DNA from: an uncultured Gammaproteobacteria bacterium
GTDB taxonomy: Bacteria > Patescibacteriota > Microgenomatia > UBA8517
NCBI GenBank assembly: GCA_964617045.1
Contig: CAZTVZ010000001.1
Span: forward strand, 24,521-88,520
Direction: 5' to 3'
DNA: 64,000 nucleotides
Part shown: in pieces, positions 35,247 to 64,000 of the stretch
How positions within the stretch are numbered: the stretch's first letter is position 1
Layout: each line of letters starts with the position of its first letter
Program-made: the position numbers and the translations under genes
Notes under the pieces: generated by a model
Seen by the model: only the letters and a program-made list of their open reading frames with translations
Told to the model about the DNA's origin: nothing
Database searches by the model: none

Positions 35247-35421
35247 TATGAAGCCTCAAATTAAGAATCAGTCAAAATTCAGTTTCAGATCTTCAGATTT
35301 CCTAAAAGGAAGTAAATTTTCAGGAGGATCAAACAAAAACAGTGTAAAATTTAATCCTTCACAGTTCAAAACACAACATAAAGGAAGTTAGCCTCGTTTT
35401 GTGTTATAATTCCTCATTGCT

Positions 35422-36270
35422 ATGGCAAAAGAAATAACAAATTCCATTGCCCGGGAAGAAGACGGAACATTACAGGTAACGTTTATGTTGCCTTGGGAGA
35501 TTGTTGAAAAAGCCCAACTTGATGCCTACAAAAAGTATGCCAAGGATATTACCGTCAAAGGTTTCCGAAAAGGAATGGCTCCTGTCGAAAAAGCCAAAGA
35601 ACATATAGCTTTGGATAAGGTAATTAGGTCTGTCATAGCCGAGATTCTTCCTCCTGCTTTGGGCAAAGCATTTGAAGAACACAAAATTCAAGCCATGATG
35701 TACCCCAGAATTGAAGTAGTGTCTGTTGAAGAAGGTAAGGATTGGCAAATTAGAGCCGTTACATGCGAATTACCCTCGTTTGAACTCGGTAACTATAAAG
35801 ATGCCATAACAAATCTCTCAAAATCATTAAAAAAGGATAAAAAAGAATTAACCGTAGAAGAAAAGCAAAGAAATATTGTGGAGCTTCTGGAAAAATCGAT
35901 AACCCTTAAAGTTCCTCATGTATTGGTTGAGGAAGAGGTTGAAGGAAGACTAACAAGCCTCCTGGATAGAATAGATAAGTTGGGACTTAACTTGGAAAGC
36001 TATCTTTCATCACTTGGTAAAACTCCGGAAAAATTGAGAGAAGAATATGTCGAACAGGCAAAATCCTCTATCGCGATGGAACTTATTTTGGAAAAGATTG
36101 CCAAAGAAGAAAAAATTGAAATTAAAGATGAAGAAATTGAAGCCGTAATTAAGGCCAGCGAAGCTGACAGGTCATTATCCGAAAGACTTAGCTCACCCGA
36201 ACAAAGATCCGTAATCAAATCAATCTTAAGAAAAAGAAAGTGTCTTGACGCTTTATCTGCCTTGCTGTAA
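35422..36270 (+). CDS. tig: Trigger factor, short form lacking the PPIase domain
   Basis: N-terminal ribosome-binding signature GFRKGMAP, then a C-terminal helical-arm-like region. 282 aa versus about 430 canonical. Confidence 0.7.
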   Translation: MAKEITNSIAREEDGTLQVTFMLPWEIVEKAQLDAYKKYAKDITVKGFRKGMAPVEKAKEHIALDKVIRSVIAEILPPALGKAFEEHKIQAMMYPRIEVVSVEEGKDWQIRAVTCELPSFELGNYKDAITNLSKSLKKDKKELTVEEKQRNIVELLEKSITLKVPHVLVEEEVEGRLTSLLDRIDKLGLNLESYLSSLGKTPEKLREEYVEQAKSSIAMELILEKIAKEEKIEIKDEEIEAVIKASEADRSLSERLSSPEQRSVIKSILRKRKCLDALSALL

Positions 36271-36282
36271 TCTGGGCTTGAA

Positions 36283-36912
36283 ATGGATAAAACTCAAAAA
36301 CAAAAGGTAATCAAAAATCTTCAAAGAAAAAATATCCTTGAATCCATTAAAGATATTGGAGAATCGACAACTCAATCTATCACTTCCGACCTTGTTGAAC
36401 AGTCGACAAAAGACTTTTTAAAAGAACTTCTGGGAATAAATAGCACCAACAAATCAGGGGAAATATTCGCAGGACAGGAAATTGCAATGAAAGAGGTGTT
36501 TGATGGTAAAGCCAAGGAAAAAGAAAACGAATATAAACAAACCAGATTTGAAAACACTCTTATAAGAGAAGAAAAAGAACGAATTGAACACAAATCCAAC
36601 GAACTAAAACTCCACCTGCATGCTTTAATGCAGGAAATCTATTCTTTGGCTAAGACTACTCAAAACCTGGGACAAGAGGTAGAGGTAGCCACTATGCAGG
36701 CCCCAGCAAATCCAGGTATATATCATGTCGTTTTTTTTGAAAAAATGATTGAATATATCAGAGATTTTCGGAAAAAAATTGAAGATTCTTCTGTCTGGCT
36801 CTCTTCATCCAATAAAAGAGCTGAGAAAAAGAACTACTGGTCCATGTACAAGAAAAAGGGGAGCTCATTCCTATTGGCTCCTGATCATTATTTACAAAGA
36901 TCGGTTGGATAA
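36283..36912 (+). CDS. Hypothetical coiled-coil protein (209 aa)
   Basis: ORF only. Confidence 0.35.
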   Translation: MDKTQKQKVIKNLQRKNILESIKDIGESTTQSITSDLVEQSTKDFLKELLGINSTNKSGEIFAGQEIAMKEVFDGKAKEKENEYKQTRFENTLIREEKERIEHKSNELKLHLHALMQEIYSLAKTTQNLGQEVEVATMQAPANPGIYHVVFFEKMIEYIRDFRKKIEDSSVWLSSSNKRAEKKNYWSMYKKKGSSFLLAPDHYLQRSVG

Positions 36913-37190
36913 TGTCTCCAGAAATTGGCCATTTTTATCAGCATTTACAAAAATTGGGTATTCATCGAAAAGTTCTTCTTGCGAGGGAAGAGGATCTCGG
37001 TGGGTATCTAATGGAAATATATTCTTTACCTCTTAACAAATACGTACTATGTGACAACAACTGCAATAATCCTGCTTCAATCATGATTTATTCAAAATCT
37101 CATGATGGCAAAAAAGCGCTTGATTTGTTTTGTGATATGCATGCCGGCGACAACCTGATTAAGCTTCGGGACAATAAATTATTTGATTAA
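36912..37190 (+). CDS. Hypothetical protein (92 aa)
   Basis: ORF only, Cys-containing. Start coincides with the upstream stop. Confidence 0.3.
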   Translation: MSPEIGHFYQHLQKLGIHRKVLLAREEDLGGYLMEIYSLPLNKYVLCDNNCNNPASIMIYSKSHDGKKALDLFCDMHAGDNLIKLRDNKLFD

Positions 37191-37231
37191 TTAGTCAATC
37201 TTTAACCCGTTTGGTATAATTAGCGTTACCT

Positions 37232-37305
37232 GGACGCTTAGCTCAGTTGGCTAGAGCGCTTTCTTGACGTGAAAGAGGTCGGGGGTTCAAGTCCCTCAGC
37301 GTCCA
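37232..37305 (+). tRNA. tRNA-Val (GAC)
   Basis: Anticodon loop TTGACGT. Preceded by TATAAT at 37215-37220. Confidence 0.9.
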
Positions 37306-37311
37306 CATATC

Positions 37312-37384
37312 GGGCTCGTAGCTCAATGGCTAGAGCACCTGGCTGGCAGTCAGGGGGTTAGGGGTTCGACTCCCCTCGAGTCCA
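37312..37384 (+). tRNA. tRNA-Ala (GGC)
   Basis: Anticodon loop CTGGCAG. G3:U70 identity pair in the acceptor stem. Confidence 0.9.
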
Positions 37385-37429
37385 CAAAACTTGCATTAAC
37401 AATCAATAAAGTACTAATATTTTATAAGG

Positions 37430-49958: not shown

Positions 49959-50396
49959 ATGAAGACTGCTCATGACCCCCGCCATATAAAAAGAAGAGAA
50001 ATCGTAAAGACATTATTTGCTGAATCTTTCACCCACCAGGATCAAGTTCCTGCAACGGACCTTGAAGACGATGGTCTGGGAGAAATCGAATTTAACGAAC
50101 TCGACAAATCCGAAATATTGGAGGAAGTAGCGGATATTGTCAAAATACAAGCAAAAATAGACGATTACATAAAAGAATCCGCGACCGAATGGCCGATAGA
50201 CAAACTGAATAAAATTGACCTATCCATTCTCAGACTGGCAATATATGAACTTCTGAATAAGGGAGAATCAACACCTCCCAAAGTTGTAATAGACGAAGCA
50301 GTTGAGCTATCCAAGGAGTTTGGAAGTGAAACCACATCCTCTTTTGTAAATGGTGTATTGGGAAGTGTCCTTAAAAAAATTGACGATGGAAAATAA
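49959..50396 (+). CDS. nusB: Transcription antitermination factor NusB
   Basis: RREIVKTLF..., ILRLAIYELLN, VVIDEAVELSKEFG...FVNGVLGSVLKK. Confidence 0.8.
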   Translation: MKTAHDPRHIKRREIVKTLFAESFTHQDQVPATDLEDDGLGEIEFNELDKSEILEEVADIVKIQAKIDDYIKESATEWPIDKLNKIDLSILRLAIYELLNKGESTPPKVVIDEAVELSKEFGSETTSSFVNGVLGSVLKKIDDGK

Positions 50397-50619
50397 TATT
50401 GAACAATTAATAATAAGTACAATTTCAGAAATTTCAGGAGCAGATATATCGGATATTAAATCGGAAGATTTTTTGATTGATGATCTTCATCTTGGACCCA
50501 CCGAAATGACCGATTTACTGGAAAAATTATCGGAAAAAGGATGCGACACGTCCAAATTAGAAAATATTCAGGAAATGACGGTTTCTGATTTGACAGAAGA
50601 ATTGACTTTAAGTTCATAA
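50386..50619 (+). CDS. Acyl-carrier-protein-like small acidic protein lacking the phosphopantetheine-attachment Ser
   Basis: Four-helix ACP-like pattern. The DSL position reads LGPTE (DDLHLGPTEMTDLLEKL). Sits immediately upstream of rnc, as acpP/acpA does in many bacteria. Confidence 0.45.
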   Translation: MENNIEQLIISTISEISGADISDIKSEDFLIDDLHLGPTEMTDLLEKLSEKGCDTSKLENIQEMTVSDLTEELTLSS

Positions 50620-50621
50620 GT

Positions 50622-51296
50622 ATGGACAACATCGACAAACTAGTAACTTTTTTTAAAAACCAAGAACTATTGGATCAGGCTTTGACCCATAAATCTTGGG
50701 TTAACGAGAACCTGGGGGTTAGGGGATCTAATGAAAGATTGGAGTTTCTTGGGGATGCTGTTCTTGAATTTGTAATTTCCGCCGAAATATTCAGGAAGTT
50801 CCCGGACAAAGAAGAAGGTTTTTTAACAGCCTTGCGATCTAGCTTGGTTAATACGGAAAATCTTGCTTCGGTTGCCATTAAACTTAATGTCGGTGAAAAG
50901 ATTTATCTATCCAAAGGCGAAGAAGAAAGTGGGGGAAGAACCAATAGTTCACTTCTTGCAGATACTGTTGAGGCGATTATAGGGGCTCTTTATATGGATC
51001 AAGGGCTCGAATATGCTACAAAATTTATCATGGACAATATCGCAGCAGAAATACCCGAAAAAATTGAACAACCTTTAAAGGATCCGAAAAGCAGACTTCA
51101 GGAATATGTCCAAAGTATGAGTTTCCCAACACCCAATTATCGCGTGGTTGAAGAAACAGGCCCCGATCACAGTAAACATTTTGAAATAGAGGTATTTGTG
51201 AATGGAGATTCATGGGGTAAGGGTGAAGGGAAAAGCAAAAGCCTGGCTGAACAGGCAGCAGCCAAAAACGCTTTGGACAACCACCTTGAGAAATAG
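50622..51296 (+). CDS. rnc: Ribonuclease III
   Basis: RNase III signature ERLEFLGDAVLEFVIS. C-terminal dsRBD. Confidence 0.9.
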   Translation: MDNIDKLVTFFKNQELLDQALTHKSWVNENLGVRGSNERLEFLGDAVLEFVISAEIFRKFPDKEEGFLTALRSSLVNTENLASVAIKLNVGEKIYLSKGEEESGGRTNSSLLADTVEAIIGALYMDQGLEYATKFIMDNIAAEIPEKIEQPLKDPKSRLQEYVQSMSFPTPNYRVVEETGPDHSKHFEIEVFVNGDSWGKGEGKSKSLAEQAAAKNALDNHLEK

Positions 51297-51325
51297 CCTC
51301 AATTAAGATATAATTCTTCACTGAC

Positions 51326-51547
51326 ATGGTAAAAATACGATTAGCCAGACTAGGAACCAAGAAAAAGCCGTTCTACCGAATTGTCGCCATAGACGAGAGA
51401 CAAAAGGGAACTGGTGAGGCATTGGATATTGTAGGATATTGGCATCCAGCACAAAAAAAGACTGAAATAGACACGGCAAAAGTTGAAGAGTGGGTCAAAA
51501 AAGGTGCAATTATTACTCCCGCGGTCAAAAAACTCATCGAAAAATGA
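51326..51547 (+). CDS. rpsP: 30S ribosomal protein S16
   Basis: MVKIRLARLGTKKKPFYRIVAIDERQKG... Confidence 0.95.
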   Translation: MVKIRLARLGTKKKPFYRIVAIDERQKGTGEALDIVGYWHPAQKKTEIDTAKVEEWVKKGAIITPAVKKLIEK

Positions 51548-51777
51548 CAGATTTAATCAAGTACATCATTAAAAACATCACTGGATCGGATGATTTCGAG
51601 GTTGTTGAAAACGAAATTGGTGAAGGAAGATTGGAATATGTAGTCAAAGTACCCAAAGAATTAATGGGTATAGTAATCGGGAAGGGTGGCAGCATAGTCA
51701 AATCAATAAGAAATCTTGTTAAAGTTAAGGCTACAATAGAAAAGAAATCCGTAAATATCTTCGTTGAAGAACGTTAA
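51544..51777 (+). CDS. khpA: KH-domain RNA-binding protein (KhpA/YlqC-like)
   Basis: VIGKGGSIVKSIRNL matches the KH GxxG loop. ATGA overlap with rpsP. Confidence 0.8.
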   Translation: MTDLIKYIIKNITGSDDFEVVENEIGEGRLEYVVKVPKELMGIVIGKGGSIVKSIRNLVKVKATIEKKSVNIFVEER

Positions 51778-52454
51778 TTAAAAGGATCCTGTCTTATTCC
51801 TGGCTGTTGAGGTGTCAAATTCACTTGAATTGGTGTTCTTAACAGCAATATTTTTGCCAGAGAATCTTTTTCTGCAGCCGTTAAATCTTTCAGAGGGTCG
51901 TTTATCGGTGGTAGCTTGGTGGGATAAGGACCGAAATATGTTCTGACAACGACATCCGCTCTCGTTAAACCGGTTGACTGCGAAAACTTTGCTTTTTCAA
52001 TATTCGAGACAGGGGATACGTTTTCAAAGGATTTCAAATAATCTAGAAGTGTAAGCATGGGACCATCTACGGTAAAAGTAATGTCGACACTGTTTACTGA
52101 ACCCTGTAAAGCTTCCGTTCCGCCTTTTAAATCGGTAATTGTCAAGCCTTTTTCCAATGCCAACATTTTTATTTGCGATATCATGGAAAAACCGGAGTAT
52201 CTTTCCGGCATTGCGAATGTAATTGCATTGGCATATTTATCCATTTCTCCCGAAAGATCGGATAGTATTCGTTCTTTTTCCTTCAAGACATTTTCAATTT
52301 TTTGATTTCTTTCAAGCTCGTCTTTTTGTTCGGTTATTTTTCCGAATCCAACCTTAACTGCAACCGTAAACACGACGGTAATAAGAAGAATCATACCAAT
52401 AGGCATTAAAAGAGCTTTTATGTTTGGTGAACTGATATTTAAATTTGTTTTCAT
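51774..52454 (-). CDS. pilO: Type IV pilus assembly protein PilO-like (bitopic)
   Basis: One TM, coiled coil, periplasmic-type domain. Downstream of pilM-pilN. Confidence 0.55.
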   Translation of the reverse strand: MKTNLNISSPNIKALLMPIGMILLITVVFTVAVKVGFGKITEQKDELERNQKIENVLKEKERILSDLSGEMDKYANAITFAMPERYSGFSMISQIKMLALEKGLTITDLKGGTEALQGSVNSVDITFTVDGPMLTLLDYLKSFENVSPVSNIEKAKFSQSTGLTRADVVVRTYFGPYPTKLPPINDPLKDLTAAEKDSLAKILLLRTPIQVNLTPQQPGIRQDPFN

Positions 52455-52993
52455 TTCTTTGTTACAGTCCCGTTGGAAAATTTGACACTAACAATGTATC
52501 CGACACTAGAATTAAAACTAAAACTCAACAAATCGATTCTTTTATATTCCGTAATAGTTGCCACAGTAGACATAAGTTTTACCAAACTTAATGAATTATT
52601 GGCAAGATAGGTCATCTCAATCGACTCTTTTCCCAGAATGGATTCCGTAACTACAATGTCCGGAGGAATAATTGTTGTAATATCGTATAGGGACGCAATT
52701 TCTTTCTCCACGTTTTGTTTCTTTTCAATTTCTGCAATTTTTGCCAATCTGTCTTTAACCAATATCAAGCTTTGTTCTGTTTGCTCCAATGCTTTGATAT
52801 TGCCTTTTAAGGCCTCCTGGGCTTCCTGAGATTTTTTCAAGGCGATTGAATTGAAGGAAAAATAAGCAACCAATCCTATTAGGGATACAACAAGAATCAT
52901 TGCCAACCCTGTTGCTGCCGATCGCAAATATCCAGATATTTTCTGTATACGAGGATCGGGAGTTAGGTCTTTGGGGAGTAGGTTAATACCCAT
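52451..52993 (-). CDS. pilN: Type IV pilus assembly protein PilN
   Basis: N-terminal INLLP motif, one TM, coiled coil. Confidence 0.7.
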   Translation of the reverse strand: MGINLLPKDLTPDPRIQKISGYLRSAATGLAMILVVSLIGLVAYFSFNSIALKKSQEAQEALKGNIKALEQTEQSLILVKDRLAKIAEIEKKQNVEKEIASLYDITTIIPPDIVVTESILGKESIEMTYLANNSLSLVKLMSTVATITEYKRIDLLSFSFNSSVGYIVSVKFSNGTVTKK

Positions 52994-52999
52994 TGCAGT

Positions 53000-54016
53000 T
53001 TATGCTCCTCTCAAAGCCAATCCAACGGCAATAGAATATAATGGCGCATACGGAGCGATTGTTTTTAGAGCCTGTTGATCAACACTTATTCTGGAGAATG
53101 GATTTCCGATTATTACTTCAATCCCTATTGCTTTGGAAATTAGAGGAAGTGCTTGAGGCATTCCGGAAGTGCCGCCGGATAAGATGATAGTTTTGGGCAT
53201 ATCACCTTTTTCTTCGGACTGATAAAAATGAATGGCTTTTTTGATTTCGTCTATAACAATATTAAATACCGGATCCAGTGCGCCCTTTATCTTTCCTTCC
53301 AATTGAGCCCCTTCCAATCCGTAAGTCCTTTTGTATTCTTCAGCTTGCTGCAATTCTATCCCGAGTGTTTGAGCAACAGCTCTCGTAAATGCCTCACCTG
53401 CAGTAGGGATACTTCTCGAGAAAGACAATTGCCCATTTTTGGCAATGGCGATATCGGTTGACTTGGCACCAAAATCGGCAATTAAAACCGTTTGATTAAT
53501 AGGTGCAAGACCTCTTGTCAAAGACATTAATTCCGTTTCAACACCGACAACATTAAGTCCTGCCAGCTGAACAGCTTTAACATATGTTTCAACTAATTTT
53601 CTGGGTGCGGCAACGAGTAGAACCAAGACTTCCGGAGGAGTAATGTTTTGCCTTCGTTCAATTATCTGATGTTGAACGATAGCTTCGTTGATTGGAATTG
53701 GAACATATTGTTCCGCTTCCCATTTTACTGCACTTGCAATTTCTTGGTCTGTTAAGGGAGGGAATTTAATGGTTCTGGTAAAAACCAGCGGTTCAGGTAG
53801 GGAAATAGAGACATCCTTGGAAGATATTCTTGCTTCGGTGTGAAGTTTTTTAATTACTTGCGCTATAGAAGCAAGATCTCTTTCGTCTTTTGCTTGATCA
53901 GGGGGAACTCCTTGATAACCAATAACACCCGAGCCGTTTAATTTCCAAACATTACCGGCAGGGACTAATTCGACAATTTTTATTGTCTTTGATCCGATAT
54001 CTATGCCAACACTCAC
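53000..54016 (-). CDS. pilM: Type IV pilus assembly ATPase-fold protein PilM (actin-like)
   Basis: VGIDIGSKTIKIVEL start, FtsA/actin-like fold motifs, 338 aa. Confidence 0.85.
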   Translation of the reverse strand: MSVGIDIGSKTIKIVELVPAGNVWKLNGSGVIGYQGVPPDQAKDERDLASIAQVIKKLHTEARISSKDVSISLPEPLVFTRTIKFPPLTDQEIASAVKWEAEQYVPIPINEAIVQHQIIERRQNITPPEVLVLLVAAPRKLVETYVKAVQLAGLNVVGVETELMSLTRGLAPINQTVLIADFGAKSTDIAIAKNGQLSFSRSIPTAGEAFTRAVAQTLGIELQQAEEYKRTYGLEGAQLEGKIKGALDPVFNIVIDEIKKAIHFYQSEEKGDMPKTIILSGGTSGMPQALPLISKAIGIEVIIGNPFSRISVDQQALKTIAPYAPLYSIAVGLALRGA

Positions 54017-54930
54017 TTTGTTATACCTCCAAGAGAAAAGATGGCCGAATCAAATACCGAGGGCAATTCACCATAACCTTGAAAAACATCAATCTTCCTG
54101 TTGGATGCACCCGAGATTCCTGTTGATGTAATTTTTACTCCTTGAGAGGGTAGAGTTCCGTTTCCTGAATAGTTTGTAGAAATTCCTGCTGTATGGGTTT
54201 CTGTGGTGTTATAAAGCATTTTAATTTTTAAAAACTGTAATCCGTTCTGGGTGGAATATACTCCGGATCCAATATTCATAGTAGATAAATCAAATGTTTT
54301 TTGGAACGCATAACGTTCACCTGTTGATAAATCACATGTGCCTGAATCGGGAGCGGAAAACCCATTCGAAGCCCTTCTCGTTTCGTTTGGGTCAATTGCG
54401 GCTCTGGCAATTCTTGCAGTACCGATACTACCGGGTGTATTTAAATAATAGACAGATGCTTCAATAGCAGGAGTAGTATCTGTATTACCCGCAGTTCCTT
54501 CTTTCCCCCAGCAAATTTTAATTTGATTCCCGGTGAAACAAGGTCTTTCCGCACTGCAAATCAAGTCGCCGTCATCATCGTGGGCAACAAACCAAAAAGT
54601 AATTGATTCTCCCGAAAAAATTCCAATCGGATTCCCAAATTCGTAATCGTTGGTGTTTGCAACTGCAATTGATGTTGAAAAAGATGCGTTATCGGAATAT
54701 TCGGAATTGGCAATAATGCTTCCAATATTTCCAGAAATTAATGCTTCTTCAACTCCTGCTTCGGCAGCGGAAAAGGCACGTAATGCTTCTTCTTCTTTTG
54801 TTGAAACACTTACATCGGTAATTGATCTGGATAAAATGGAAAGCACAACCGTCAAAACAACTGCCATAGAAAGAAGAACCAGAAGCAATGCTTGACCACT
54901 CTGTCCAACATTTTTTGGCAGATTTTTCAT
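54013..54930 (-). CDS. PilX-N-domain-like minor pilus component
   Basis: N-terminus GQSGQALLLVLLSMAVVLTVVLS resembles the PilX_N hydrophobic segment. Large variable C-terminal domain. Confidence 0.5.
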   Translation of the reverse strand: MKNLPKNVGQSGQALLLVLLSMAVVLTVVLSILSRSITDVSVSTKEEEALRAFSAAEAGVEEALISGNIGSIIANSEYSDNASFSTSIAVANTNDYEFGNPIGIFSGESITFWFVAHDDDGDLICSAERPCFTGNQIKICWGKEGTAGNTDTTPAIEASVYYLNTPGSIGTARIARAAIDPNETRRASNGFSAPDSGTCDLSTGERYAFQKTFDLSTMNIGSGVYSTQNGLQFLKIKMLYNTTETHTAGISTNYSGNGTLPSQGVKITSTGISGASNRKIDVFQGYGELPSVFDSAIFSLGGITK

Positions 54931-54972
54931 AACAATTCAGTTTAGCAATGTAACCTTATCAGGTCAATTATG

Positions 54973-55485
54973 TTAGTAAGATCTTAATAGTATCTTTGTA
55001 CTCGTTGAGACGACAGCATTATCAATATCCCCCGAATTTGTCTCACTTGCCGTCAGGTCGATAATTACGGATGGGGGAACGACCCCTGCTTCGGGTATGC
55101 AGGTGAACGAACAGGAATTTATTTTTACATCGGTTCCCGTCAATCTTGCCGATCCGGATGCAACATAGCTTTCGTCCGTTCCTGTTCCCACACACGAGAA
55201 AGAAGAAGCAAGGCCTCCATTCGCAATATAATCAATTCTGGTGGGATCAATATTTGGACAAGGCGATACCTTGTCTGCATTTCTTATATTCCTTTCCATA
55301 ATCGCAATTGCGTAATCCAAATTCTCCCTTACTTTAACAACATCATCGCTTTTGTTTGATCCTCTTAAGGTAAGAATTGTAATTCTGCTAATCAAAACAC
55401 CTAATACGGCAAAAACGGCAACAACAACCAATATTTCGATAAAGGAAATCCCTTTTATTTCTTTCATCTTTGTAAATCTCTCCAA
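54973..55485 (-). CDS. Minor (pseudo)pilin with prepilin-type N-terminus
   Basis: KG|ISFIEILVVVAVFAVLG class III signal. Confidence 0.6.
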   Translation of the reverse strand: MERFTKMKEIKGISFIEILVVVAVFAVLGVLISRITILTLRGSNKSDDVVKVRENLDYAIAIMERNIRNADKVSPCPNIDPTRIDYIANGGLASSFSCVGTGTDESYVASGSARLTGTDVKINSCSFTCIPEAGVVPPSVIIDLTASETNSGDIDNAVVSTSTKILLRSY

Positions 55486-55937
55486 TCGCTGAATCGGGTT
55501 GTCGAACTAACCTGATGTTCTCCCTGGCTATCTACCCAGTACACTTTTACAAAAGCATCAACATATTGCTTTGGAACCCCCGAAACGTCAATTGTACCTG
55601 CTGTAAATACTACCTCACGATAAAAAAAAGTATCCGGAATAAACTCGTTATCCGAGCAATTTGGTTTGGCATTTGAAATGGTCCAATCAAGTTCTGTCAT
55701 ACACCAGCTTGGAGTTGCAGAGGCAACGGCATAAAAATCATTCCAATTAATATCTCTTTCGCTTCTTAACCATTCCATTGTCTGCTGGGCGTATCTTGTT
55801 GCAACAGTATTGTTTCTCGAATATGAGCTGTTTCTAATCGATGTCGAAGCAAGGGCTACAATTGCAACAATAATTAAAGTTGATACTGCCAGGGCAACGA
55901 CAATTTCAAAAAGAGATTGGCCTTTTTCGTTTTTCAA
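55464..55937 (-). CDS. Minor pilin with prepilin-type N-terminus
   Basis: G|QSLFEIVVALAV with E at +5. Confidence 0.6.
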   Translation of the reverse strand: MKNEKGQSLFEIVVALAVSTLIIVAIVALASTSIRNSSYSRNNTVATRYAQQTMEWLRSERDINWNDFYAVASATPSWCMTELDWTISNAKPNCSDNEFIPDTFFYREVVFTAGTIDVSGVPKQYVDAFVKVYWVDSQGEHQVSSTTRFSDWRDLQR

Positions 55938-56419
55938 TTAATTTCTCCTCCTTGAGTAACAGTTACAGAAATTATTTTACCGGTCGATATTTGTGTAACG
56001 GATACAATTTCCGACGGATTGGGAATATTAGTTCCGTGTCCCAGAGGCTTAAATATGATTGGATTAATTCCAGTAGAAATAATTAAATCATTTGAATTTA
56101 ACTCTTTTGTTTTTACTTCAACGCTCCCTCCCGTACACAATGCATTAATCCTGTAGGTATTGGAATTAATAACAAGAAATTCATAACCGTTAAGTAAATT
56201 TGACCCTTGGCAGTTTGGACTATCAGGCTTTTCTCCGGCAAGAGCTTTGCTTTGTGCCAATCTTAGATCACTTTTGATAAATCTAGCGGTCGAAGTAAGA
56301 AGTTGTCTTCTTGAAAATTCTCTAAAACCAACATATCCAACACCGAAAATCAATCCGATTATGGTTAATCCGACAAGTATTTCGATAAGGGTATAACCGT
56401 TGTTGTTTTTTTCATTCAT
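55934..56419 (-). CDS. Minor pilin, GspH/FimT-like
   Basis: NG|YTLIEILVGLTIIGLI, then the GspH-like segment ARFIKSDLRLAQSKA. Confidence 0.6.
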   Translation of the reverse strand: MNEKNNNGYTLIEILVGLTIIGLIFGVGYVGFREFSRRQLLTSTARFIKSDLRLAQSKALAGEKPDSPNCQGSNLLNGYEFLVINSNTYRINALCTGGSVEVKTKELNSNDLIISTGINPIIFKPLGHGTNIPNPSEIVSVTQISTGKIISVTVTQGGEIN

Positions 56420-56886
56420 TAGGGGCTGGTTACTTTATAATTACACTCAACGTCTGTCCCACAACTATCTATTCCACCATCTCCGTCACAATCGACACCT
56501 GCAAGCTCATCTTCCAAGGCAGTACAAAGAGAGTAGGACGATCCCGTTTCGGAGTAGTATCTGTAAAATCTCCCAGTAGTTGAAATTGGTTCCGAAGGGC
56601 TTACAAAATATTGATTGGAAGACGAACAGCTGGTGGGTGTATCGTCACCGTTAAGTGTTGCCGGCCAATTTGTTGTGTATGTTTCCGCCGGATAATTGCC
56701 ACAGTCGGAATGATATATCTCAAGTCCGGACCTTATCAGCTCAAGATCTGCTTTTCTTCGGGCGTCACGAGAGTCTTTCCTGGCTTCCTGAAGTCCAAAC
56801 ACGGATACAGCCATCAATATTCCGACTATCGAGATAACAACAAGAAGTTCGATTAATGTAAAACCTTTTCTCATGGCAGGGGACAA
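56419..56886 (-). CDS. Type IV pilin paralog 1
   Basis: KG|FTLIELLVVISIVG, conserved RDARRKADL...YP module, Cys-rich variable C-terminus. Confidence 0.75.
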   Translation of the reverse strand: MSPAMRKGFTLIELLVVISIVGILMAVSVFGLQEARKDSRDARRKADLELIRSGLEIYHSDCGNYPAETYTTNWPATLNGDDTPTSCSSSNQYFVSPSEPISTTGRFYRYYSETGSSYSLCTALEDELAGVDCDGDGGIDSCGTDVECNYKVTSP

Positions 56887-57338
56887 GTGCCTCCCGATTG
56901 TTCCTCGGATACATATCCTTCTCCGACTTTTCCATTACTGCAAATTATGTAATGCCTGTCAGAAGTGTTTTCTATTAATGCCCACAAAACATACATTGTT
57001 GCCCCCGGATCTCCGGAATTGTCGACATTAGATTGATAGTTGTAGACAAAAGCATTGTTGGAAACATATTTTACATCTTCAGGGCAACCACTTTGACCCA
57101 AGTCGGTACAGAGAGTGGAGGACGCTCTTGCTGTTACGTTTCTTTTTGGATAAAGTCCTTCGTTTTTATTGGCATAAACCTCAAGCATGTTTTGATATTG
57201 CCTAAGATCCGACTTTCTTTTTGAATCATTTGCCTGTTTTTGTGATCCTCCGAAAGAAACCAGAGACACTGCAGCAAGCACACCAATAATCGATATTACA
57301 ACCAACAATTCTACAAGTGTAAATCCTTTCTTATTCAT
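56871..57338 (-). CDS. Type IV pilin paralog 2
   Basis: KG|FTLVELLVVISIIG, KRKSDL...YP module. Confidence 0.75.
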   Translation of the reverse strand: MNKKGFTLVELLVVISIIGVLAAVSLVSFGGSQKQANDSKRKSDLRQYQNMLEVYANKNEGLYPKRNVTARASSTLCTDLGQSGCPEDVKYVSNNAFVYNYQSNVDNSGDPGATMYVLWALIENTSDRHYIICSNGKVGEGYVSEEQSGGTCPLP

Positions 57339-57805
57339 GGTCTTACTTGATACATAACATCATTTGGACAATCTGTATTTTCAACACCTTTTTCATCGCT
57401 TGGATTTTCCAGACATGCAGTCAACGTATAGCTATCAGCATTGGGATCATAAACATACGAATAGGATTGGTCTGGAAGTGGATCGGCAGGAAGCATGGTC
57501 ATTATTACACGGTTATCGGATGACCACACTTGACCCCATTCGCAATCTGCAAAACCTTGTTGTACACGACCACAACCGTGGATCTTTCCATCGGCAGATG
57601 CCGTCGGATAATAGTTATGATCGTTATAAAAAAGTCTGAGTGCTGTTTGAATGTTCCTTAAATCAGATTTTCTCTGTGCATCTCTTGCACGTTCCCTGGC
57701 CGAATTAAAATTGGCAAGAAGAAGTGCAGAAATTATACCGATAATGGATATAGCAACAAGAAGTTCAATTAGAGTGAATCCTTTTTTCGTGGCAGAATTG
57801 AACAT
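57335..57805 (-). CDS. Type IV pilin paralog 3
   Basis: KG|FTLIELLVAISIIG, RDAQRKSDL...YP module. Confidence 0.75.
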   Translation of the reverse strand: MFNSATKKGFTLIELLVAISIIGIISALLLANFNSARERARDAQRKSDLRNIQTALRLFYNDHNYYPTASADGKIHGCGRVQQGFADCEWGQVWSSDNRVIMTMLPADPLPDQSYSYVYDPNADSYTLTACLENPSDEKGVENTDCPNDVMYQVRP

Positions 57806-57816
57806 AATTTATTATA

Positions 57817-58350
57817 TCAGTCAAAAACTTCAAATACAGTTGTATTGGTCGAAGTTAATCCGTAATTACAGATATTTGTCCCGCCACAAGTAACAACAAC
57901 AGGGTTTATGCAATTGGGGGTGCCACCTTGAACACCGTTCGTTCCTTTAATACAATTTTTATCTTGTTGATTTTCCAGTCGGGCGAAAAGTTTATATTTA
58001 CTCCTCGCAGTGTTTACATAATATTGATATATCGTTGATTCCGAAGGGTCAGATGGAAGAGTTTTGAAATACACCGTTTGACCATCGGTAAAATCGTCAT
58101 AACCCCAGTCACAGTTTCCTTCTGTGGTAGAAGGACATCCAGCAATCATTGTCCCGGAAGCACCAGGATATTGCCTGTGATCCTGATAGTACAATTCAAG
58201 TGCGTTTACAATCTGTTTTAAATCGCTTTTTCTCTGAGCATCCCTTCCTTTCATTTGAGAAGATCGAAAAGCTCCTACTCCAACAACGGCAAGTATTCCA
58301 AGAATTGCAATTACTACAAGTAGCTCAATTAAAGTAAAACCTTTTTTCAT
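57817..58350 (-). CDS. Type IV pilin paralog 4
   Basis: KG|FTLIELLVVIAILG, RDAQRKSDL...YP module. Confidence 0.75.
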   Translation of the reverse strand: MKKGFTLIELLVVIAILGILAVVGVGAFRSSQMKGRDAQRKSDLKQIVNALELYYQDHRQYPGASGTMIAGCPSTTEGNCDWGYDDFTDGQTVYFKTLPSDPSESTIYQYYVNTARSKYKLFARLENQQDKNCIKGTNGVQGGTPNCINPVVVTCGGTNICNYGLTSTNTTVFEVFD

Positions 58351-58964
58351 GGCATCAATTTATTTTCGTACTCTTTCAGGGACATATCAAGCGGAGTGCC
58401 TCTCGAAGCTTTTCCAAAATTGCAGATATCACTACCGCAGGATATGTTTCTTTGCTCGATTTTAGTAGAATAATCTAGAACACTTTTCCCTTCAAAGGAT
58501 CCGAATATTTGATAATGGTCTCCTGTAGAAAAATATCGATAACTTCTTCCCTTCGAAGATTCCATGTCTTGAGGAACATGGGAAAGATATGGTTCTTTTC
58601 CTTCGACGGTAAAATCTTCGAAAACACTTTCTCCCCATATGCACGGAGCAAATGTTTGAAACATCTTTTCCCTGTTTTCCAATGGCCTTCCTGCAAGTAA
58701 ATATTTCATGTCTTCCCTTTCCCAACCTTCAGGTAGGCATGCAATAATTTCTCCTTCATCGGAAGCTAAAGGGTACCTGTCAAAATCATTGTAAAAAGCT
58801 TCAAGTGCCGATTGAACAGCGGTTAGATCGTTTCTTCTTTGGATATCCCTTGCTTTTTCAAGACTAACCAGGTAGTTCCAGTAGGAATAAAAATAAATAC
58901 CTATAAGGATAATGACAAGTCCGACAATTTCTTTTTTGTATTCTTTGAGATTGATCATTCCCAT
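58347..58964 (-). CDS. Pilin-like paralog lacking the prepilin peptidase cleavage motif
   Basis: Has the conserved ARDIQRRNDL...FYNDFDRYP pilin module behind an uncleavable-looking TM (no G-F-T-L-I-E). Confidence 0.5.
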   Translation of the reverse strand: MGMINLKEYKKEIVGLVIILIGIYFYSYWNYLVSLEKARDIQRRNDLTAVQSALEAFYNDFDRYPLASDEGEIIACLPEGWEREDMKYLLAGRPLENREKMFQTFAPCIWGESVFEDFTVEGKEPYLSHVPQDMESSKGRSYRYFSTGDHYQIFGSFEGKSVLDYSTKIEQRNISCGSDICNFGKASRGTPLDMSLKEYENKLMP

Positions 58965-59590
58965 GGTTCACATTCATTTATTGGTTCACCGCTCGAAGGA
59001 GCCGTACACTGAGAGTAGCATGTCTGAGATAGAAAGTTGGGGTCACATTCAGGACCGGGCCTGCTAACATCCCAACCGATAGGAACACAAGAACCGGCTC
59101 GACAACCATAAAAGTCGGATGATGTTATGTTTGCATGAGGGGCATTGGGACTGGAGGTGTAATAATTAAATGCCCCATCGGGACCCAGACCACCCATTAT
59201 GTCCGTGTCAGCGTCATTCTCCAGAGTGGCATAAAGCTTAAACCAATCAGGACAAGTATCGGCATCCGGTATTTCATAAAGATAATCGGATCCTGTTCTG
59301 GGATCACAGGGAATTTTATCAAGGTATGGCCTTAGTCCAGTTCCCGGATTGCAATAGAGAAGATCTCTTGGGGGATAACAATCGTGATCTTTTTCGTATT
59401 CCTCAACGGCTGTTCTGATTTTATGAAGATCAGCTTTTCTTCTTGCGTCAAACCCTTTCCAGATTTGGGTTCGATATGCCCATATGGCAACAACAATCAA
59501 AAGCGCCATAACAACGACAACTATCATTACCTCCATCAAAGTAAAGCCCAATATTCTTTTTTTACTTATTGTGCTTTTTATATTATTCAT
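58955..59590 (-). CDS. Type IV pilin paralog 6 (Cys-rich C-terminal domain)
   Basis: LG|FTLMEVMIVVVV, FDARRKADL...YPP module, 12 Cys in the C-terminal half. Confidence 0.7.
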   Translation of the reverse strand: MNNIKSTISKKRILGFTLMEVMIVVVVMALLIVVAIWAYRTQIWKGFDARRKADLHKIRTAVEEYEKDHDCYPPRDLLYCNPGTGLRPYLDKIPCDPRTGSDYLYEIPDADTCPDWFKLYATLENDADTDIMGGLGPDGAFNYYTSSPNAPHANITSSDFYGCRAGSCVPIGWDVSRPGPECDPNFLSQTCYSQCTAPSSGEPINECEPWE

Positions 59591-60378
59591 AGCGGCATTA
59601 TTAATCTTAACAAAGTATTGCCCCATAGAAAAACCAAGATGAAAGCTGCGACCAAAAATGGCCCAAACGGTATTTCATCTTTCCTTTTGGCCTTTTTCAA
59701 CATCAAGAGAACTATTGCAACGATAGCTCCCAAAATGAACGATAGAAATATCCAGAGTGGGGTATACGGATAACCCAACAATAATCCTATGGGAACCGCC
59801 AGTTTAACGTCTCCCAAACCCATACCCCGTCCTTTTGTTAGTAAATTAATGGATAACAAGAAAAATGACGCTGCGAATGCGCTAACAATATGCAAATAGA
59901 TATTGGAATAATCAAGAATTATAAAAGTTGTAATAATTAGAGTGGATAGAAAAACAATTGTTTCGTCTGGGATAATCTTATTTTCCCAATCAATAATCAA
60001 AATAAGATAACAAAGGAAAAATACAATTAGGGTGAATATTAGGCCCATAAAACCCAATTCGTTTCGAAACAAAGACAGCAGTGCACTGTCGGAGAAATAG
60101 AAAGCCAAATAAGTAGCAACGAAAATAAATCCCGAGAAAACCTCAATCAAAGGATACCTGCAAGAAATCTTTTCTCTGCAAAAGCGACATTTGCCCCACA
60201 GAAATAAATATGAAAGAAGTGGAATATTGTCGTACCACTTTAGTTTTTTGCGGCACTTAGTACATTCGGATCTTTCGGTTTTCCAATTTATACCTCTGGG
60301 AATCCGATAACTAAGTGCCGTGGCAAAGGAACCAAAAATTAATCCTGCCAAAAACAATACCAATAACCAAGTTATCAC
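59587..60378 (-). CDS. pilD: Prepilin peptidase (A24 family)
   Basis: N-terminal CxxC...CxxC zinc motif (CTKCRKK...CRFCRE), 8 TM, catalytic Asp regions. Confidence 0.9.
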   Translation of the reverse strand: MITWLLVLFLAGLIFGSFATALSYRIPRGINWKTERSECTKCRKKLKWYDNIPLLSYLFLWGKCRFCREKISCRYPLIEVFSGFIFVATYLAFYFSDSALLSLFRNELGFMGLIFTLIVFFLCYLILIIDWENKIIPDETIVFLSTLIITTFIILDYSNIYLHIVSAFAASFFLLSINLLTKGRGMGLGDVKLAVPIGLLLGYPYTPLWIFLSFILGAIVAIVLLMLKKAKRKDEIPFGPFLVAAFILVFLWGNTLLRLIMPL

Positions 60379-60379
60379 T

Positions 60380-60979
60380 TTATTCGGGTAAACAGACTAC
60401 ACATGATGTAGCCATATCAGCATATGTTCTAGTCGCACAGTCAGCAACGTTTTCCGTAATTTCGCTATCAGCGATACTTATGGATCTGCTTGCTTTTTTC
60501 TGTTCAGACTTGGATTTTGGTACATAACAAGCGTATACGGATGCAGCAACACCTGCTGTTCCGTCACTCTTTCCAATGTAAAGTAAGTCGTTCCATGCGG
60601 AAGTCGATCTTACAAAATCTCTTTTCGTAAACTCCGTTTTGAGTTCGTTATTGGTAATAAGTAAACCAGGGTCGTTTGGACAACCATTTTGACCCGGTGC
60701 TACATCACATATTCCAATTGTCGTGTCCCTAGCGTCGGTGAAATTAACAGCGTCTTCGTCATCAGTAACCCCGGCTTCATACCAGGGGAAATGTCCGATT
60801 GCCACGTAATATCTATCTATTGCCGCTAAAAGTTGTGATGCGTCCGATTTCATTCTTGAATCCCTTGAACGATTTGCTTGTTCAAGCGGATTAATCGCTG
60901 CTAAAACCGCTGTGGCCAAAACTCCGAGAAGTGCGATAACAATCAAAAGTTCAACTAACGTAAAACCTTTTTTATTCAT
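60380..60979 (-). CDS. pilA: Type IV pilin (candidate major pilin, adjacent to pilC)
   Basis: KG|FTLVELLIVIALLGVLA, strong AAGGAGG Shine-Dalgarno upstream, 199 aa. Confidence 0.8.
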   Translation of the reverse strand: MNKKGFTLVELLIVIALLGVLATAVLAAINPLEQANRSRDSRMKSDASQLLAAIDRYYVAIGHFPWYEAGVTDDEDAVNFTDARDTTIGICDVAPGQNGCPNDPGLLITNNELKTEFTKRDFVRSTSAWNDLLYIGKSDGTAGVAASVYACYVPKSKSEQKKASRSISIADSEITENVADCATRTYADMATSCVVCLPE

Positions 60980-61066
60980 TTTAGGCAGAATTAATTTTGT
61001 TCACCTCCTTTAAATATTAAAACAACTGTAATCAGTATGAAAAATCCCCACTGCTATGTCAATAGC

Positions 61067-62272
61067 TTAGAAACTACTGGTCAAATTATAGATCGGTAAA
61101 ATAATTGCGATAACCAAAAATCCGACACCAAGTCCCAACAAAATCATTACCAACGGTTCAACGGCAGAGGTTAAAGTTTTTACTTTTTCTTCACTCTCTA
61201 TCTCAAAAACATGGCTTACCTTGGAAAGAACTTCTTCCATTTTTCCGGTTTCTTCTCCAACCGCAATCATTTGGGAAAGGATAAACGGAAAAGCTTCGGG
61301 GTGTTTTGAAAACGAATAAGCAATGGGGAATCCTTTTTCTACTTGTTTTGCAGCATCTTTTAAAGCCTCGGATATTACAACGTTATCGGTAACACCGGAT
61401 GTAATTGTTAAACTTTCAAGGATAGAGACTCCAGCACCGGTCATCAAGCTCATTGTTCTTGTAAGTTCCGTAAGCATTACTTCTTTTTGCATCGGCCCGA
61501 TAATAGGAATCTTAAAATAGAGCTCGTCGGTTTTTCTTCTTCCCAAAGGAGTCTTTCTGTATTGAATAAACGCAAACACACCGATTACTCCAATCATCAA
61601 AACAATGGGCCAGAACTTTACTGCGGCATTCGAAATCGTAATTAATATTTTTGTTGCGACAGGAAGGTTGGCATTAAATTCGGTATATAAAGACATTAAT
61701 CGGGGGATAACAAAGATCATCATTACAATCGCAACTGCAACCATACCAATAACGATAATTGCAGGATAAATAAGGGCTCCTTTTACTTTTCCTGAAAATT
61801 CCTGCTGTTTTTCGAGATTGTCCGCAAGTCTATTTAAAACTTGATCGATAACACCTCCCAATTCTCCTGATTTAACAAGAGCAATGTAGGTTGGGGAGAA
61901 TACTTTAGGATGTTTTTGCAAAGCAACCGAAAGAGACTGTCCGCCTTCAACATCGTTAAGAATTTGAGAAACAACTTTTTGCATACCTCCTTTTGTTTGT
62001 GATCTGAGAATAAGAAGTGACTCGGTAATAGGAAGTCCGGCATTAACCATTGTTGCCATTTGTCTTGTAAAAGTAGTAACGTCTCTCCCGGTGATTTTAT
62101 TTCTTAGATTGGTAATTATTGACGCTATGCTCTCTGTCGCGGGGGATACGGAGATTACAACAAGTCCTTTGTCTCTCACCAGTTTTGCGGCAACACTAAT
62201 AGAGGACGCCTCAACTTCACCGGTTACCAACTTTCCCGTTTTATCTTTTGCTTTGTAAAAAAACCTTTTCAT
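61067..62272 (-). CDS. pilC: Type IV pilus platform protein PilC (GspF family)
   Basis: Two GspF repeats, three TM, 401 aa. Confidence 0.9.
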   Translation of the reverse strand: MKRFFYKAKDKTGKLVTGEVEASSISVAAKLVRDKGLVVISVSPATESIASIITNLRNKITGRDVTTFTRQMATMVNAGLPITESLLILRSQTKGGMQKVVSQILNDVEGGQSLSVALQKHPKVFSPTYIALVKSGELGGVIDQVLNRLADNLEKQQEFSGKVKGALIYPAIIVIGMVAVAIVMMIFVIPRLMSLYTEFNANLPVATKILITISNAAVKFWPIVLMIGVIGVFAFIQYRKTPLGRRKTDELYFKIPIIGPMQKEVMLTELTRTMSLMTGAGVSILESLTITSGVTDNVVISEALKDAAKQVEKGFPIAYSFSKHPEAFPFILSQMIAVGEETGKMEEVLSKVSHVFEIESEEKVKTLTSAVEPLVMILLGLGVGFLVIAIILPIYNLTSSF

Positions 62273-62279
62273 TTAAACG

Positions 62280-63353
62280 TTAGTACATTCCGTCTTGAGG
62301 AGAGCGAACAAGTCTGGTAAGTTGCTCGGGCCTCATTGACCAACTTTGGGCTACATCCAAAGAAATTTTACCGGCCTTTACCAGTGCGGCAAGTGAATTC
62401 TCCAGTGTATACATTCCCACTTCTTGTGAGGTTTGGAGTATTGAATCAATTTGATGAGTTTTTCCTTCTCTGATAGCTGTTCTAATTGCTGTCGTTCCAA
62501 GCATTACTTCGGAGGCAACCATTCTTCCACCTGTAATAGATGGTACAAGTCTTTGCGAGAATACCGCCTCAATAACATTTGACAGTTGAAGTCTTACTTG
62601 TCCTTGTTGTTCTTCCGGAAAAACATCGACAATTCTATCAATTGTTTGTGCAGCCGAATTGGTGTGCAATGTTGCCAAAACCAAATGTCCGGTCTCTGCA
62701 ACGGTGAGCGCAGCGGCTATTGTTTCGTAATCTCTCATCTCTCCAACAAGTACAACATCCGGATCCTCACGCAGGGTTGATCTTAGCGCAACCTGCCAAG
62801 AATGAGTATCGGACTTCATTTCCCTTTGAGAAATAATCGACTTTATCGGTTTAAACATAAATTCTATCGGGTCTTCAATGGTAACAATGTGGGCAGCTCT
62901 GTTGTTGTTTATTTCATTGATCATTGAGGCAAGAGTCGTTGATTTACCATGTCCTGTTGGTCCCGTAACAAGAACAAATCCTTGTTTCAGGTTGGTGAAG
63001 TTGTGAATTATTTTGGGTAATCCCAATGCGTCAACTGCTGGTATTTCCAAGGGAATTCTTCTGAATGCCGCCGCAAGGGTCCCTCTTTGGGTATATGCGT
63101 TAACACGGAATCTTGCTTTTTCGGAAAACGCCAAAGAAAAATCGATTTCCTTGTTAACGGTAAGTCTTTCAAGTTGTTCTGAGGTCAAAGCTTCTTTTAA
63201 AAAGGCGGCAACGGAGTCGGGGGTAAGAACTGCTTCGTTGGGTACAGGCATCAGATTTCCTTCGACTCTAATCGTAGGAGCAATACCTGAAATGACATGC
63301 AAGTCCGATGCATTTCTGTCTACTGTTAATTGTAATAATTCTTTTACTCCCAT
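62280..63353 (-). CDS. pilT: Type IV pilus retraction ATPase PilT
   Basis: Walker A GPTGHGKSTT, Asp box, His box (ATLHTNSAA), AIRE(G)-like motif. 357 aa. Confidence 0.9.
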   Translation of the reverse strand: MGVKELLQLTVDRNASDLHVISGIAPTIRVEGNLMPVPNEAVLTPDSVAAFLKEALTSEQLERLTVNKEIDFSLAFSEKARFRVNAYTQRGTLAAAFRRIPLEIPAVDALGLPKIIHNFTNLKQGFVLVTGPTGHGKSTTLASMINEINNNRAAHIVTIEDPIEFMFKPIKSIISQREMKSDTHSWQVALRSTLREDPDVVLVGEMRDYETIAAALTVAETGHLVLATLHTNSAAQTIDRIVDVFPEEQQGQVRLQLSNVIEAVFSQRLVPSITGGRMVASEVMLGTTAIRTAIREGKTHQIDSILQTSQEVGMYTLENSLAALVKAGKISLDVAQSWSMRPEQLTRLVRSPQDGMY

Positions 63354-64000
63354 TATTCTTGAGCAACTCTCAATATTTCTTCTATTGTAGTTGTTCCCTC
63401 CAATACTTTTAAGTATCCGTCCTGCTTCATTGTTATTAGTCCATCCAACTTGGCTTGCTTTTCTATTTCGCTGGCTGGTGATCGTTGCAAAATAAGATTT
63501 TGTACTTTTTCCGTTACCGGAATAACTTCAAATATTCCGACTCTTCCTTGATAACCGGAATTGCCGCAATCCTGATCACCTTGGCCCTTATACAATTGAA
63601 CTTGCTTGTTTTGGGGATAAAAGTTTCCCAGAACCTGCTTCATGTCTTCCAATATCTTTGGATCGGGATTATATGCAACCTTACATTTGTCGTGAATTTT
63701 TCTGACGACCCTTTGTGCAACAATGGCTGTCATTGAAGAGGCAAGAAGATAAGGTTCCGCACCCATATCCAAAAGTCTGGGCAAGGCACCCGATGCATCG
63801 TTGGTGTGAAGCGTAGAAAAAACCAAATGACCCGTTAGTGATGCTTGAATAGCAAGATCCGCTGTCTCTCGGTCACGAATTTCTCCAACAAGAATAATAT
63901 TGGGATCTTGTCTCAAAAAAGCTCTTAATCCGGAAGCGAATGTAAGTCCCGCGGCAGGATTAACTTGCACCTGGTTTACACCTGGCATCTTATATTCGAC
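63353..64000 (-). CDS. pilB: Type IV pilus extension ATPase PilB/GspE, C-terminal part (5' end beyond the window)
   Basis: GspE C-terminal domain: [32 protein letters not shown], and a tetracysteine-like region. Confidence 0.85.

Follow-up and report, generated by a model that had tools for sequence, protein, structure and literature searches.

A predicted single-membrane type IVa-like pilus operon from a Woesebacteria-like bacterium

The 64,000-nucleotide stretch of contig CAZTVZ010000001.1 described here (the window, 64 kb) carries on its minus strand, from position 51774 to the window end at 64000, an uninterrupted run of 18 genes (ca. 13.3 kb) related to type IV pilus (T4P) genes. From gene content and order we consider it probable (ca. 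0.85) that this run is an operon for a type IVa pilus (T4aP)-like machine which acts across the single membrane of a Candidatus Woesebacteria cell (Microgenomates, candidate phyla radiation (CPR)/Patescibacteria). An earlier note on this DNA had proposed a complete secretin-less T4P locus on the minus strand with a contiguous gene order from pilB to pilO, and both proposals were borne out. An open reading frame (ORF) map of positions 50000-64000, combined with scans with Pfam and NCBIfam hidden Markov models (HMMs), gave 18 genes in the order pilB-pilT-pilC-p199-pilD-p223-p205-p177-p156-p155a-p155b-p161-p157-p170-p305-pilM-pilN-pilO, the truncated pilB being completed from another contig.

Neighbouring genes of the run touch or share a few bases, the sole gaps, of 87 and 42 nucleotides (nt), preceding p199 and p305, respectively, and because of this packing with nearly no gaps the locus looks like one operon. 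A six-frame scan of the window for the canonical prepilin motif G↓(F/Y/Q/I)(T/S)(L/F)xE, where the arrow marks the cleavage position, returned nine motifs, all nine of them within the locus. Scans for promoters and terminators gave no excess over shuffled sequence (35 sites against 31.3 expected and 10 against 11.1, respectively), and since the site count is not above the shuffle expectation, a promoter-like site before p199 is not taken as evidence. Exact look-up of the PilT protein led to a contig of a public assembly (L001) that matches the window over 11,721 bp with 100% identity and therefore serves as a reliable extension of the window beyond its edge. This contig supplies the missing 1,083 nt of pilB, the first gene of the operon, and upstream of it carries a divergent holB gene followed by gyrB, ppa, small genes and gyrA.

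The window, which has a G+C content of ca. 38%, is on sequence grounds assigned to a Woesebacteria-like CPR bacterium because its PilC protein is 75-76% identical to proteins from metagenome-assembled genomes (MAGs) named Candidatus Woesebacteria, Microgenomates or Patescibacteria. To our knowledge, the Woesebacteria have no cultured member. Many of the closest MAG records bear the title 'uncultured Gammaproteobacteria bacterium' (L014, L022, L023, L026 and others), with a PilC identity of 64-75% and a locus of the Woesebacteria type; these titles are probably taxonomic mislabels.

Dozens of Woesebacteria MAGs show the same order of 18 genes. In 80 related loci the ORFs were matched to proteins of the window, and 41 loci from Woesebacteria-like species span the region from pilD to p161. 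The exact order pilD-p223-p205-p177-p156-p155a-p155b-p161 is present in 26 of these 41 loci; nine have the reduced order pilD-p205-p155a-p155b-p161, and the other six show small variants. Median identities of positional pilin orthologues are 34-53%, as compared to 70-75% for PilB, PilT and PilC. A conserved order of strongly diverged positional orthologues indicates that the pilin array is old and fixed. In the nine reduced loci the match at the p199 position is weaker, or p199 is replaced by a p155a-like gene (L048, L049).

Assembly machinery and cell envelope

Of pilB, the window contains the C-terminal 215 codons (63353-64000, minus strand like all genes of the locus; T2SSE domain, 216 bits), and the full gene extends to the virtual coordinate 65083. 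The complete protein has 576 amino acids (L001:8271-10001) and is composed of an N-terminal MshEN domain and a T2SSE domain. Among proteins with solved structures, full-length matches were obtained with Thermus PilF (470 bits), Geobacter PilB (427 and 424 bits) and Myxococcus PilB (407 bits), with Vibrio GspE/EpsE trailing at 375-358 bits. PilT, the retraction ATPase (62280-63353, 357 amino acids), belongs to the PilT/PilU family TIGR01420 with 449.3 bits against a cut-off of 319.1, and its best solved relatives are the PilT proteins of Aquifex, Geobacter and Pseudomonas (336-289 bits). Thus both an extension and a retraction ATPase are present, as the earlier note had claimed, and the outcome that would have spoken for type II secretion (T2SS), namely classification of the ATPases as GspE, was not obtained: PilT is clear, and for PilB the solved structures favour PilF/PilB over GspE. 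The MshEN domain binds cyclic di-GMP in some ATPases. In PilB (L001:8271-8800) the first residues of the binding motif are TLS in place of RLG, and by eye the motif appears only partly conserved.

The platform protein PilC (61067-62272, 401 amino acids) consists of two T2SSF repeats (201 bits). PilD, the prepilin peptidase/N-methyltransferase (59587-60378), matches A24_N_bact with 103.5 bits and Peptidase_A24 with 56.3 bits; it has 263 amino acids, or 258 if translation starts at the ATG at 60363.

PilM, PilN and PilO form a subcomplex that is specific to T4aP, and all three are present at the end of the locus. The actin-like assembly protein PilM (53000-54016, 338 amino acids) matches PilM_2 with 153.7 bits and TIGR01175 with 191 bits against a cut-off of 133, and it aligns over its full length with the solved PilM proteins of Myxococcus, Thermus and Pseudomonas. 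The PilN-like protein (52451-52993, 180 amino acids), encoded between pilM and pilO, was recognized by position, topology and motif: a short cytoplasmic N-terminus with the sequence INLLP is followed by one transmembrane helix. Residues N4-L5-L6-P7 are invariant in 21 orthologues, and in an alignment with Myxococcus PilN the motif corresponds to MMIRINLLP, at an E-value of 0.36 that is not significant by itself. In Thermus and Pseudomonas, a conserved N-terminal PilN motif binds in a pocket of PilM (PMC5805733). The PilO-like protein (51774-52454) has 226 amino acids, or 210 from the ATG at 52406, and gives weak matches to T2SSM_b and GspM. A profile of 17 orthologues retrieved Myxococcus PilO (3jc8_O) with an E-value of 6.8e-7 and P. 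aeruginosa PilO with 0.037.

Neither a secretin nor PilP nor a TsaP/LysM-type domain was found in the sizeable ORFs of the 64 kb window, as judged from a Pfam scan or from Pfam labels on identical contigs, nor were secretin, PilP or TsaP found in the 8.3 kb upstream of pilB on contig L001. The absence of PilQ, PilP and TsaP noticed earlier therefore extends to this upstream region, and a nearby secretin, the finding that would have contradicted the secretin-less reading, did not turn up. CPR cells have no outer membrane (PMC7143001), so that the fibre would have no need of PilQ, PilP and TsaP to leave the cell.

The pilin genes

The gene p199 (60380-60979, 199 amino acids) encodes a protein with the leader MNKKG↓FTLVE and an N_methyl domain (35 bits). 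A profile built from 35 orthologues ranks Geobacter PilA, S. sanguinis PilE1, Neisseria PilE and Myxococcus PilA ahead of GspG. Because its profile prefers major T4a pilins and because the gene follows the sole sizeable intergenic gap, p199 is the best candidate for the major pilin. All-versus-all BLASTP comparison showed that p199 has only ca. 63 N-terminal residues, which form the helix, in common with the other pilins of the locus.

The six genes behind pilD are similar to GspG and to each other. The best defined member is p177 (57817-58350, 177 amino acids), a GspG-like type IV pilin with more than 4,600 database homologues, many of them labelled GspG or XcpT; its predicted structure (predicted local distance difference test score, pLDDT, 93) has GspG/EpsG as nearest fold, followed by T4 pilins. 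Three further proteins with N_methyl domains are paralogues of p177: p156 (57335-57805; 43% identity to p177 over 140 amino acids), p155a (56871-57338; 34-36% identity to p156, p177 and p155b) and p155b (56419-56886; 36% identity to p177 over 169 amino acids, with a likely start at 56874 that gives 151 amino acids). In the all-versus-all comparison only these four are full-length paralogues (32-43% identity), and p223 and p205 are distant relatives of p177 and p156 (26-33% identity). The cysteine-rich p223 (58955-59626, 223 amino acids, or 211 from the likely start at 59590) matches N_methyl with 23 bits and the GspG HMM with 40 bits, which is below cut-off. It is 33% identical to p177 over 136 amino acids and carries G or A at position -1 in 38 of 38 orthologues. 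The earlier note had counted seven tandem pilin paralogs; what stands of this is a family of six genes, four full-length and two distant, next to which p199, sharing only its N-terminal helix with them, is a pilin of its own.

As judged from their conservation, the six GspG-like genes are fixed, non-redundant components of the locus, and their products may enter the fibre in low amounts or serve as alternative fibre subunits. We reject the idea that the genes arose by recent tandem duplication or form an array for antigenic variation: the paralogues are only 26-43% identical and have positional orthologues across 26-47 species loci. The p223 protein has 10 cysteines, mostly in a C-terminal extension beyond the pilin core, and the number of cysteines is even (2-10) in every pilin-like protein of the locus. 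The even counts suggest disulfide-stabilised extracellular domains in an organism without a periplasm.

For nine of the pilin families in the locus, every orthologue carries G or A at position -1, and the Glu at +5 is conserved. The leaders have 4-15 residues, most of them 4-9, with 5 in p199, 12 in p305 and 15 in p223. The p205 protein (58347-58964, 205 amino acids) departs from this pattern by its degenerate cleavage site. It is 27-30% identical to p177 and p156 over 149-188 amino acids and matches T2SSG with 18 bits, below cut-off. In its family the Gly at -1 is present in only 7 of 47 orthologues, the remaining 40 having F, K, I, L, P, N or R, whereas 44 of 47 retain Phe(+1) and 46 of 48 retain Glu(+5); the protein still belongs to the pilin fold family. 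The copy in the window reads MGMINLK↓EYKKE and has no prepilin cleavage motif. From the PilD work of Strom and Lory, prepilin peptidases are said to require Gly, or at best Ala, at position -1; since this residue is lost, p205 is probably an unprocessed, pilin-like component.

The four genes p161, p157, p170 and p305 lie in positions that would correspond to the order GspH-I-J-K, or FimU-PilV-PilW-PilX, with weak HMM scores that are mostly confined to the N-terminal part and below cut-off. The p161 protein (55934-56419, 161 amino acids, G↓YTLIE), in the GspH/FimU position, matches N_methyl with 27.8 bits and the N-terminal part of the GspH HMM with 27 bits. In the PilV/GspI position, p157 (55464-55937, 157 amino acids, G↓QSLFE) scores 25 bits with the PilV and 22 bits with the GspI HMM, and in the PilW/GspJ position p170 (54973-55485, 170 amino acids, likely start 55467, G↓ISFIE) scores 19.9 bits with GspJ. 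Orthologue profiles of p161 and p170 run against the PDB retrieved generic pilin N-termini only, so the labels GspH and GspJ stay weak. The description of these genes in the earlier note as GspH-like, other minor pilins and PilX-like is compatible with their position, order and pilin N-termini; the GspH score is sub-threshold.

GspK and PilX are pilin-like proteins without the Glu at +5. Likewise, the large p305 protein in the PilX/GspK position (54013-54930, 305 amino acids, G12↓QALLL) lacks Glu(+5); its G12-Q13 is invariant. The protein has no Pfam domain and 1,019 homologues, and its orthologue profile gave no significant match in the PDB. The predicted structure comprises a pilin helix and a beta-sandwich. 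We regard p305 as a candidate tip subunit with a possible binding domain, comparable to the lectin-like minor pilins reported for TM7x (PMC11623550), the beta-sandwich being the best adhesin candidate of the locus.

Mode of action, alternative readings and related systems

Established knowledge of T4aP, applied to the parts of the locus, suggests the following mode of action. Nine prepilins display the full G↓xxxxE motif and p305 retains the Gly; from these observed motifs we infer that PilD would cut the short leaders after Gly(-1) and N-methylate up to ten prepilins. The minor pilins p161, p157, p170 and p305 would prime assembly and end up at the tip of the fibre. A PilB hexamer on PilC, held by PilM-PilN-PilO with PilM bound to the invariant INLLP N-terminus of PilN, would polymerise the major pilin, most likely p199, and PilT would depolymerise the fibre, so that the pilus could extend and retract. 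By analogy with Saccharibacteria, such a fibre would serve attachment to surfaces or host cells and twitching, possibly also DNA capture. In the Saccharibacteria, twitching and adhesion to the host are driven by T4P (PMC9894109), without which there is no epibiotic growth (PMC10633639) and which occur in two forms with lectin-like minor pilins (PMC11623550).

Several points weigh against a T4aP-like machine in a Woesebacteria cell. The pilus is predicted from genes; a symbiotic lifestyle of Woesebacteria is hypothetical; p199 is proposed as major pilin on indirect grounds; and the absence of a secretin applies to ca. 72 kb around the locus. PilN gave no significant match in Pfam or NCBIfam, nor did its orthologue profile in the PDB. 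Full-length PilB scores 551.0 bits with the PilB HMM (over the whole model) and 550.6 bits with that of GspE, both below cut-off, and PilC scores 341 bits with the PilC (Thermus type) and 344 bits with the GspF HMM, which are both under cut-off and inseparable. With such near-equal, sub-threshold scores the NCBIfam HMMs cannot separate PilB from GspE. For PilB, PilC and the small pilins, the GspE, GspF and GspG models score equal to or slightly above the pilus models, and homologues are often labelled 'type II secretion system protein G' in databases, as would be expected if the locus encoded a T2SS or a T2SS-like pseudopilus exporter instead of a pilus. However, the GspE, GspF and GspG scores all remain under their curated cut-offs, the solved pilus ATPases are nearer relatives of PilB than is GspE, and the p199 profile favours major T4a pilins. 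The outer membrane that a T2SS crosses is absent from CPR cells (PMC7143001). With a clear PilT and with PilM rather than GspL above cut-off, and with no GspD secretin, GspC or GspL found, the T2SS reading is untenable; we rule it out as a classification and consider an exporter of this type very improbable.

A T4aP-like pilus could also have DNA uptake as its main job, with a competence pilus that retracts bound DNA to ComEC and so feeds genes or nucleotides to a cell unable to synthesise nucleotides. Transformation in Neisseria, Thermus and Vibrio makes use of a retractile T4aP with PilT. Furthermore, ComEC, DprA and ComFC are commonly found alongside T4P in CPR genomes, and Saccharibacteria are naturally transformable in a comEC-dependent manner (PMC10633639, PMC8672522). 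The p177 protein shows a weak match to the Pfam family ComP_DUS (19.7 bits, below cut-off), and its fold neighbours include competence pilins of Thermus. On the other hand, no comEC, comEA, comFC or dprA gene was found in the 64 kb window, and in Southlakia the T4P genes are essential whereas comEC is dispensable (PMC10633639), so the essential role of the pilus in that organism is not competence. The locus is not of the Com type either, as it encodes PilT, PilMNO and a full-length PilB with MshEN. A ComG pseudopilus is ruled out by the presence of PilT and PilMNO and by the scores for ComGA (266 bits against a cut-off of 300), ComGB (134 against 240) and ComGC (at most 30 against 75). We regard DNA uptake as a possible yet unlikely main role; it is compatible with adhesion or motility and hence not exclusive. 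Somewhat less probable still is that the machine assembles two kinds of fibre, one being a T4a pilus of p199 and the other a second filament or short pseudopilus of p177, p156, p155a, p155b and p223, which might serve secretion or another kind of binding, with p205 as an uncleaved, membrane-anchored component. The cassette order, fixed in 26 of the 41 species loci despite diverged orthologues, argues for distinct, selected roles of its genes; p177 has its nearest fold in the major T2SS pseudopilin EpsG, and p199 is unrelated to the cassette apart from the helix. There are precedents in the heteropolymeric pilus of S. sanguinis (PMC10628169), the two T4P of TM7x (PMC11623550) and the wide and narrow pili of Thermus (PDB 6xxd and 6xxe, which are among the p199 and p161 profile matches). 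Against a second fibre, the locus has a single set of PilB, PilC and PilMNO. Nine related species keep three of the six cassette genes, so not all six are indispensable, and low-abundance minor pilins account equally well for the same data. A T4aP-like pilus with p199 as the candidate major subunit is our preferred interpretation.

Among known systems, the closest in gene content are the T4P of other CPR bacteria. Secretin-less T4P with PilB and PilT are already known for the CPR including Microgenomates, and the locus represents an expected CPR genotype. The Microgenomates genome Ch65 has a single T4P locus with PilB and PilT and no pilQ, and T4P are stated to be widespread in the CPR (PMC7143001). 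Microscopy has shown pili on CPR bacteria, and there are published accounts of twitching and host binding that depend on T4P (PMC7143001, PMC9894109, PMC10633639, PMC11623550). As in the window, the Ch65 locus, T4P-1 of TM7x and T4P1 of Southlakia epibionticum (PMC7143001, PMC11623550, PMC10633639) each combine PilB, PilT, PilC, PilD, PilM(NO), a major pilin and several minor pilins in one locus. Also in common with the window, these loci lack PilQ and some of their minor pilins resemble T2SS pseudopilins. PilX1 of Nanosynbacter lyticus TM7x is comparable to p305, being the largest pilin-like protein, with an extra beta-rich domain and a non-canonical signal. Unlike the locus described here, TM7x has its pilins distributed over four loci and possesses a second machine without PilT. 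What sets the Woesebacteria version apart from these loci is the fixed cassette of six GspG-like pilins after pilD, one of them without Gly(-1).

The T4aP of Firmicutes (S. sanguinis, Clostridium) have the same parts list and no outer-membrane component (PMC6916266, PMC4832360, PMC10628169), and the minimal monoderm set in S. sanguinis consists of pilins, PilD, PilC, PilB and PilMNO, with PilT for retraction (PMC6916266). By description, however, the Firmicute major pilins studied have long leaders, the PilM-PilN contact may use another motif, and the minor pilins of S. sanguinis are unrelated to PilHIJK (PMC6916266). In the Woesebacteria-like locus the leaders mostly have 4-9 residues, PilN carries a diderm-type INLLP, and the candidate minor pilins follow a putative GspH-I-J-K order. 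The diderm T4aP of Myxococcus xanthus, P. aeruginosa and Thermus thermophilus provide the best solved relatives of PilB, PilT, PilM and PilO, and they share with the locus the INLLP of PilN, T4a pilins with short leaders and, putatively, four minor pilins in a FimU/PilV/PilW/PilX-like order. Unlike these systems, no PilQ, PilP, TsaP, PilF/PilW pilotin or PilY1 was found here, and the genes form a single operon instead of several loci. The term 'monoderm-type' used in the earlier note is therefore appropriate for the parts list but not for the lineage: with short leaders on most pilins, the INLLP motif, the putative H-I-J-K order and the best matches, the parts look like those of a diderm T4aP that no longer has its outer-membrane components, rather than like the Firmicute version. 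The similarity to T2SS comprises a homologous ATPase, platform and prepilin peptidase, GspG-like subunits, a putative H-I-J-K-like quartet and the EpsG-like fold of p177; the systems differ in that GspD, GspC and GspL are absent here, PilT and PilM are present, and there is no outer membrane.

Only three features go beyond what has been published, and we put them forward as hypotheses: the conservation of the six-pilin cassette, the presence in it of p205 as a probably uncleavable member, and the traits that recall diderm systems. In their boldest combination, p205 would be a new, uncleaved and membrane-retained pilin-like part of the machine or a terminator of the fibre, the cassette would build a heteropolymeric or second filament, and the locus would be a diderm T4aP minus its outer-membrane parts; we consider this combination doubtful. 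If true, a diderm-derived machine would bear on whether the ancestors of the CPR had two membranes, and diderm-like details in a locus that has no outer-membrane component are in any case a small data point in the debate on the ancestral CPR envelope.

T4P are the main candidate for the organelle with which CPR bacteria, ultrasmall as they are, locate other cells, hold on to them and exploit them. The locus leaves this picture unchanged and adds to it a clean, compact and complete example from the Woesebacteria. It further offers three leads, namely p199 as candidate major pilin, p305 as candidate tip adhesin and the six-pilin cassette with p205, of which p199 and p305 could guide proteomics, antibody work and cryo-electron tomography on uncultured Microgenomates.

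Other genes in the window

The remaining genes of the window are mostly housekeeping genes, with a ppsA-like gene, eno, gpmI, lexA, uvrABC, a PBP1 gene, pheST, thrS, tyrS, recG, rnc, rpsP, tig and transporter genes, and a few are unannotated. A 471-amino-acid ORF on the minus strand (27708-29123) has no Pfam match, and two adjacent plus-strand genes (20162-22400) encode proteins of 397 and 373 amino acids with the appearance of secreted or membrane-anchored proteins, for which Pfam gave no meaningful match. A set of DNA-damage genes (6301-15610 and 33299-34558) in this small CPR genome consists of clustered lexA, uvrB, uvrA and uvrC and, further on, a gene for a DinB/ImpB-family polymerase; a transglutaminase-like membrane protein is encoded between uvrA and uvrC. 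The 64 kb also contain 15 tRNA genes (19986-37385), six of which (Leu, Leu, Val, Phe, Gly, Arg) follow each other at 30373-30886 on the plus strand.

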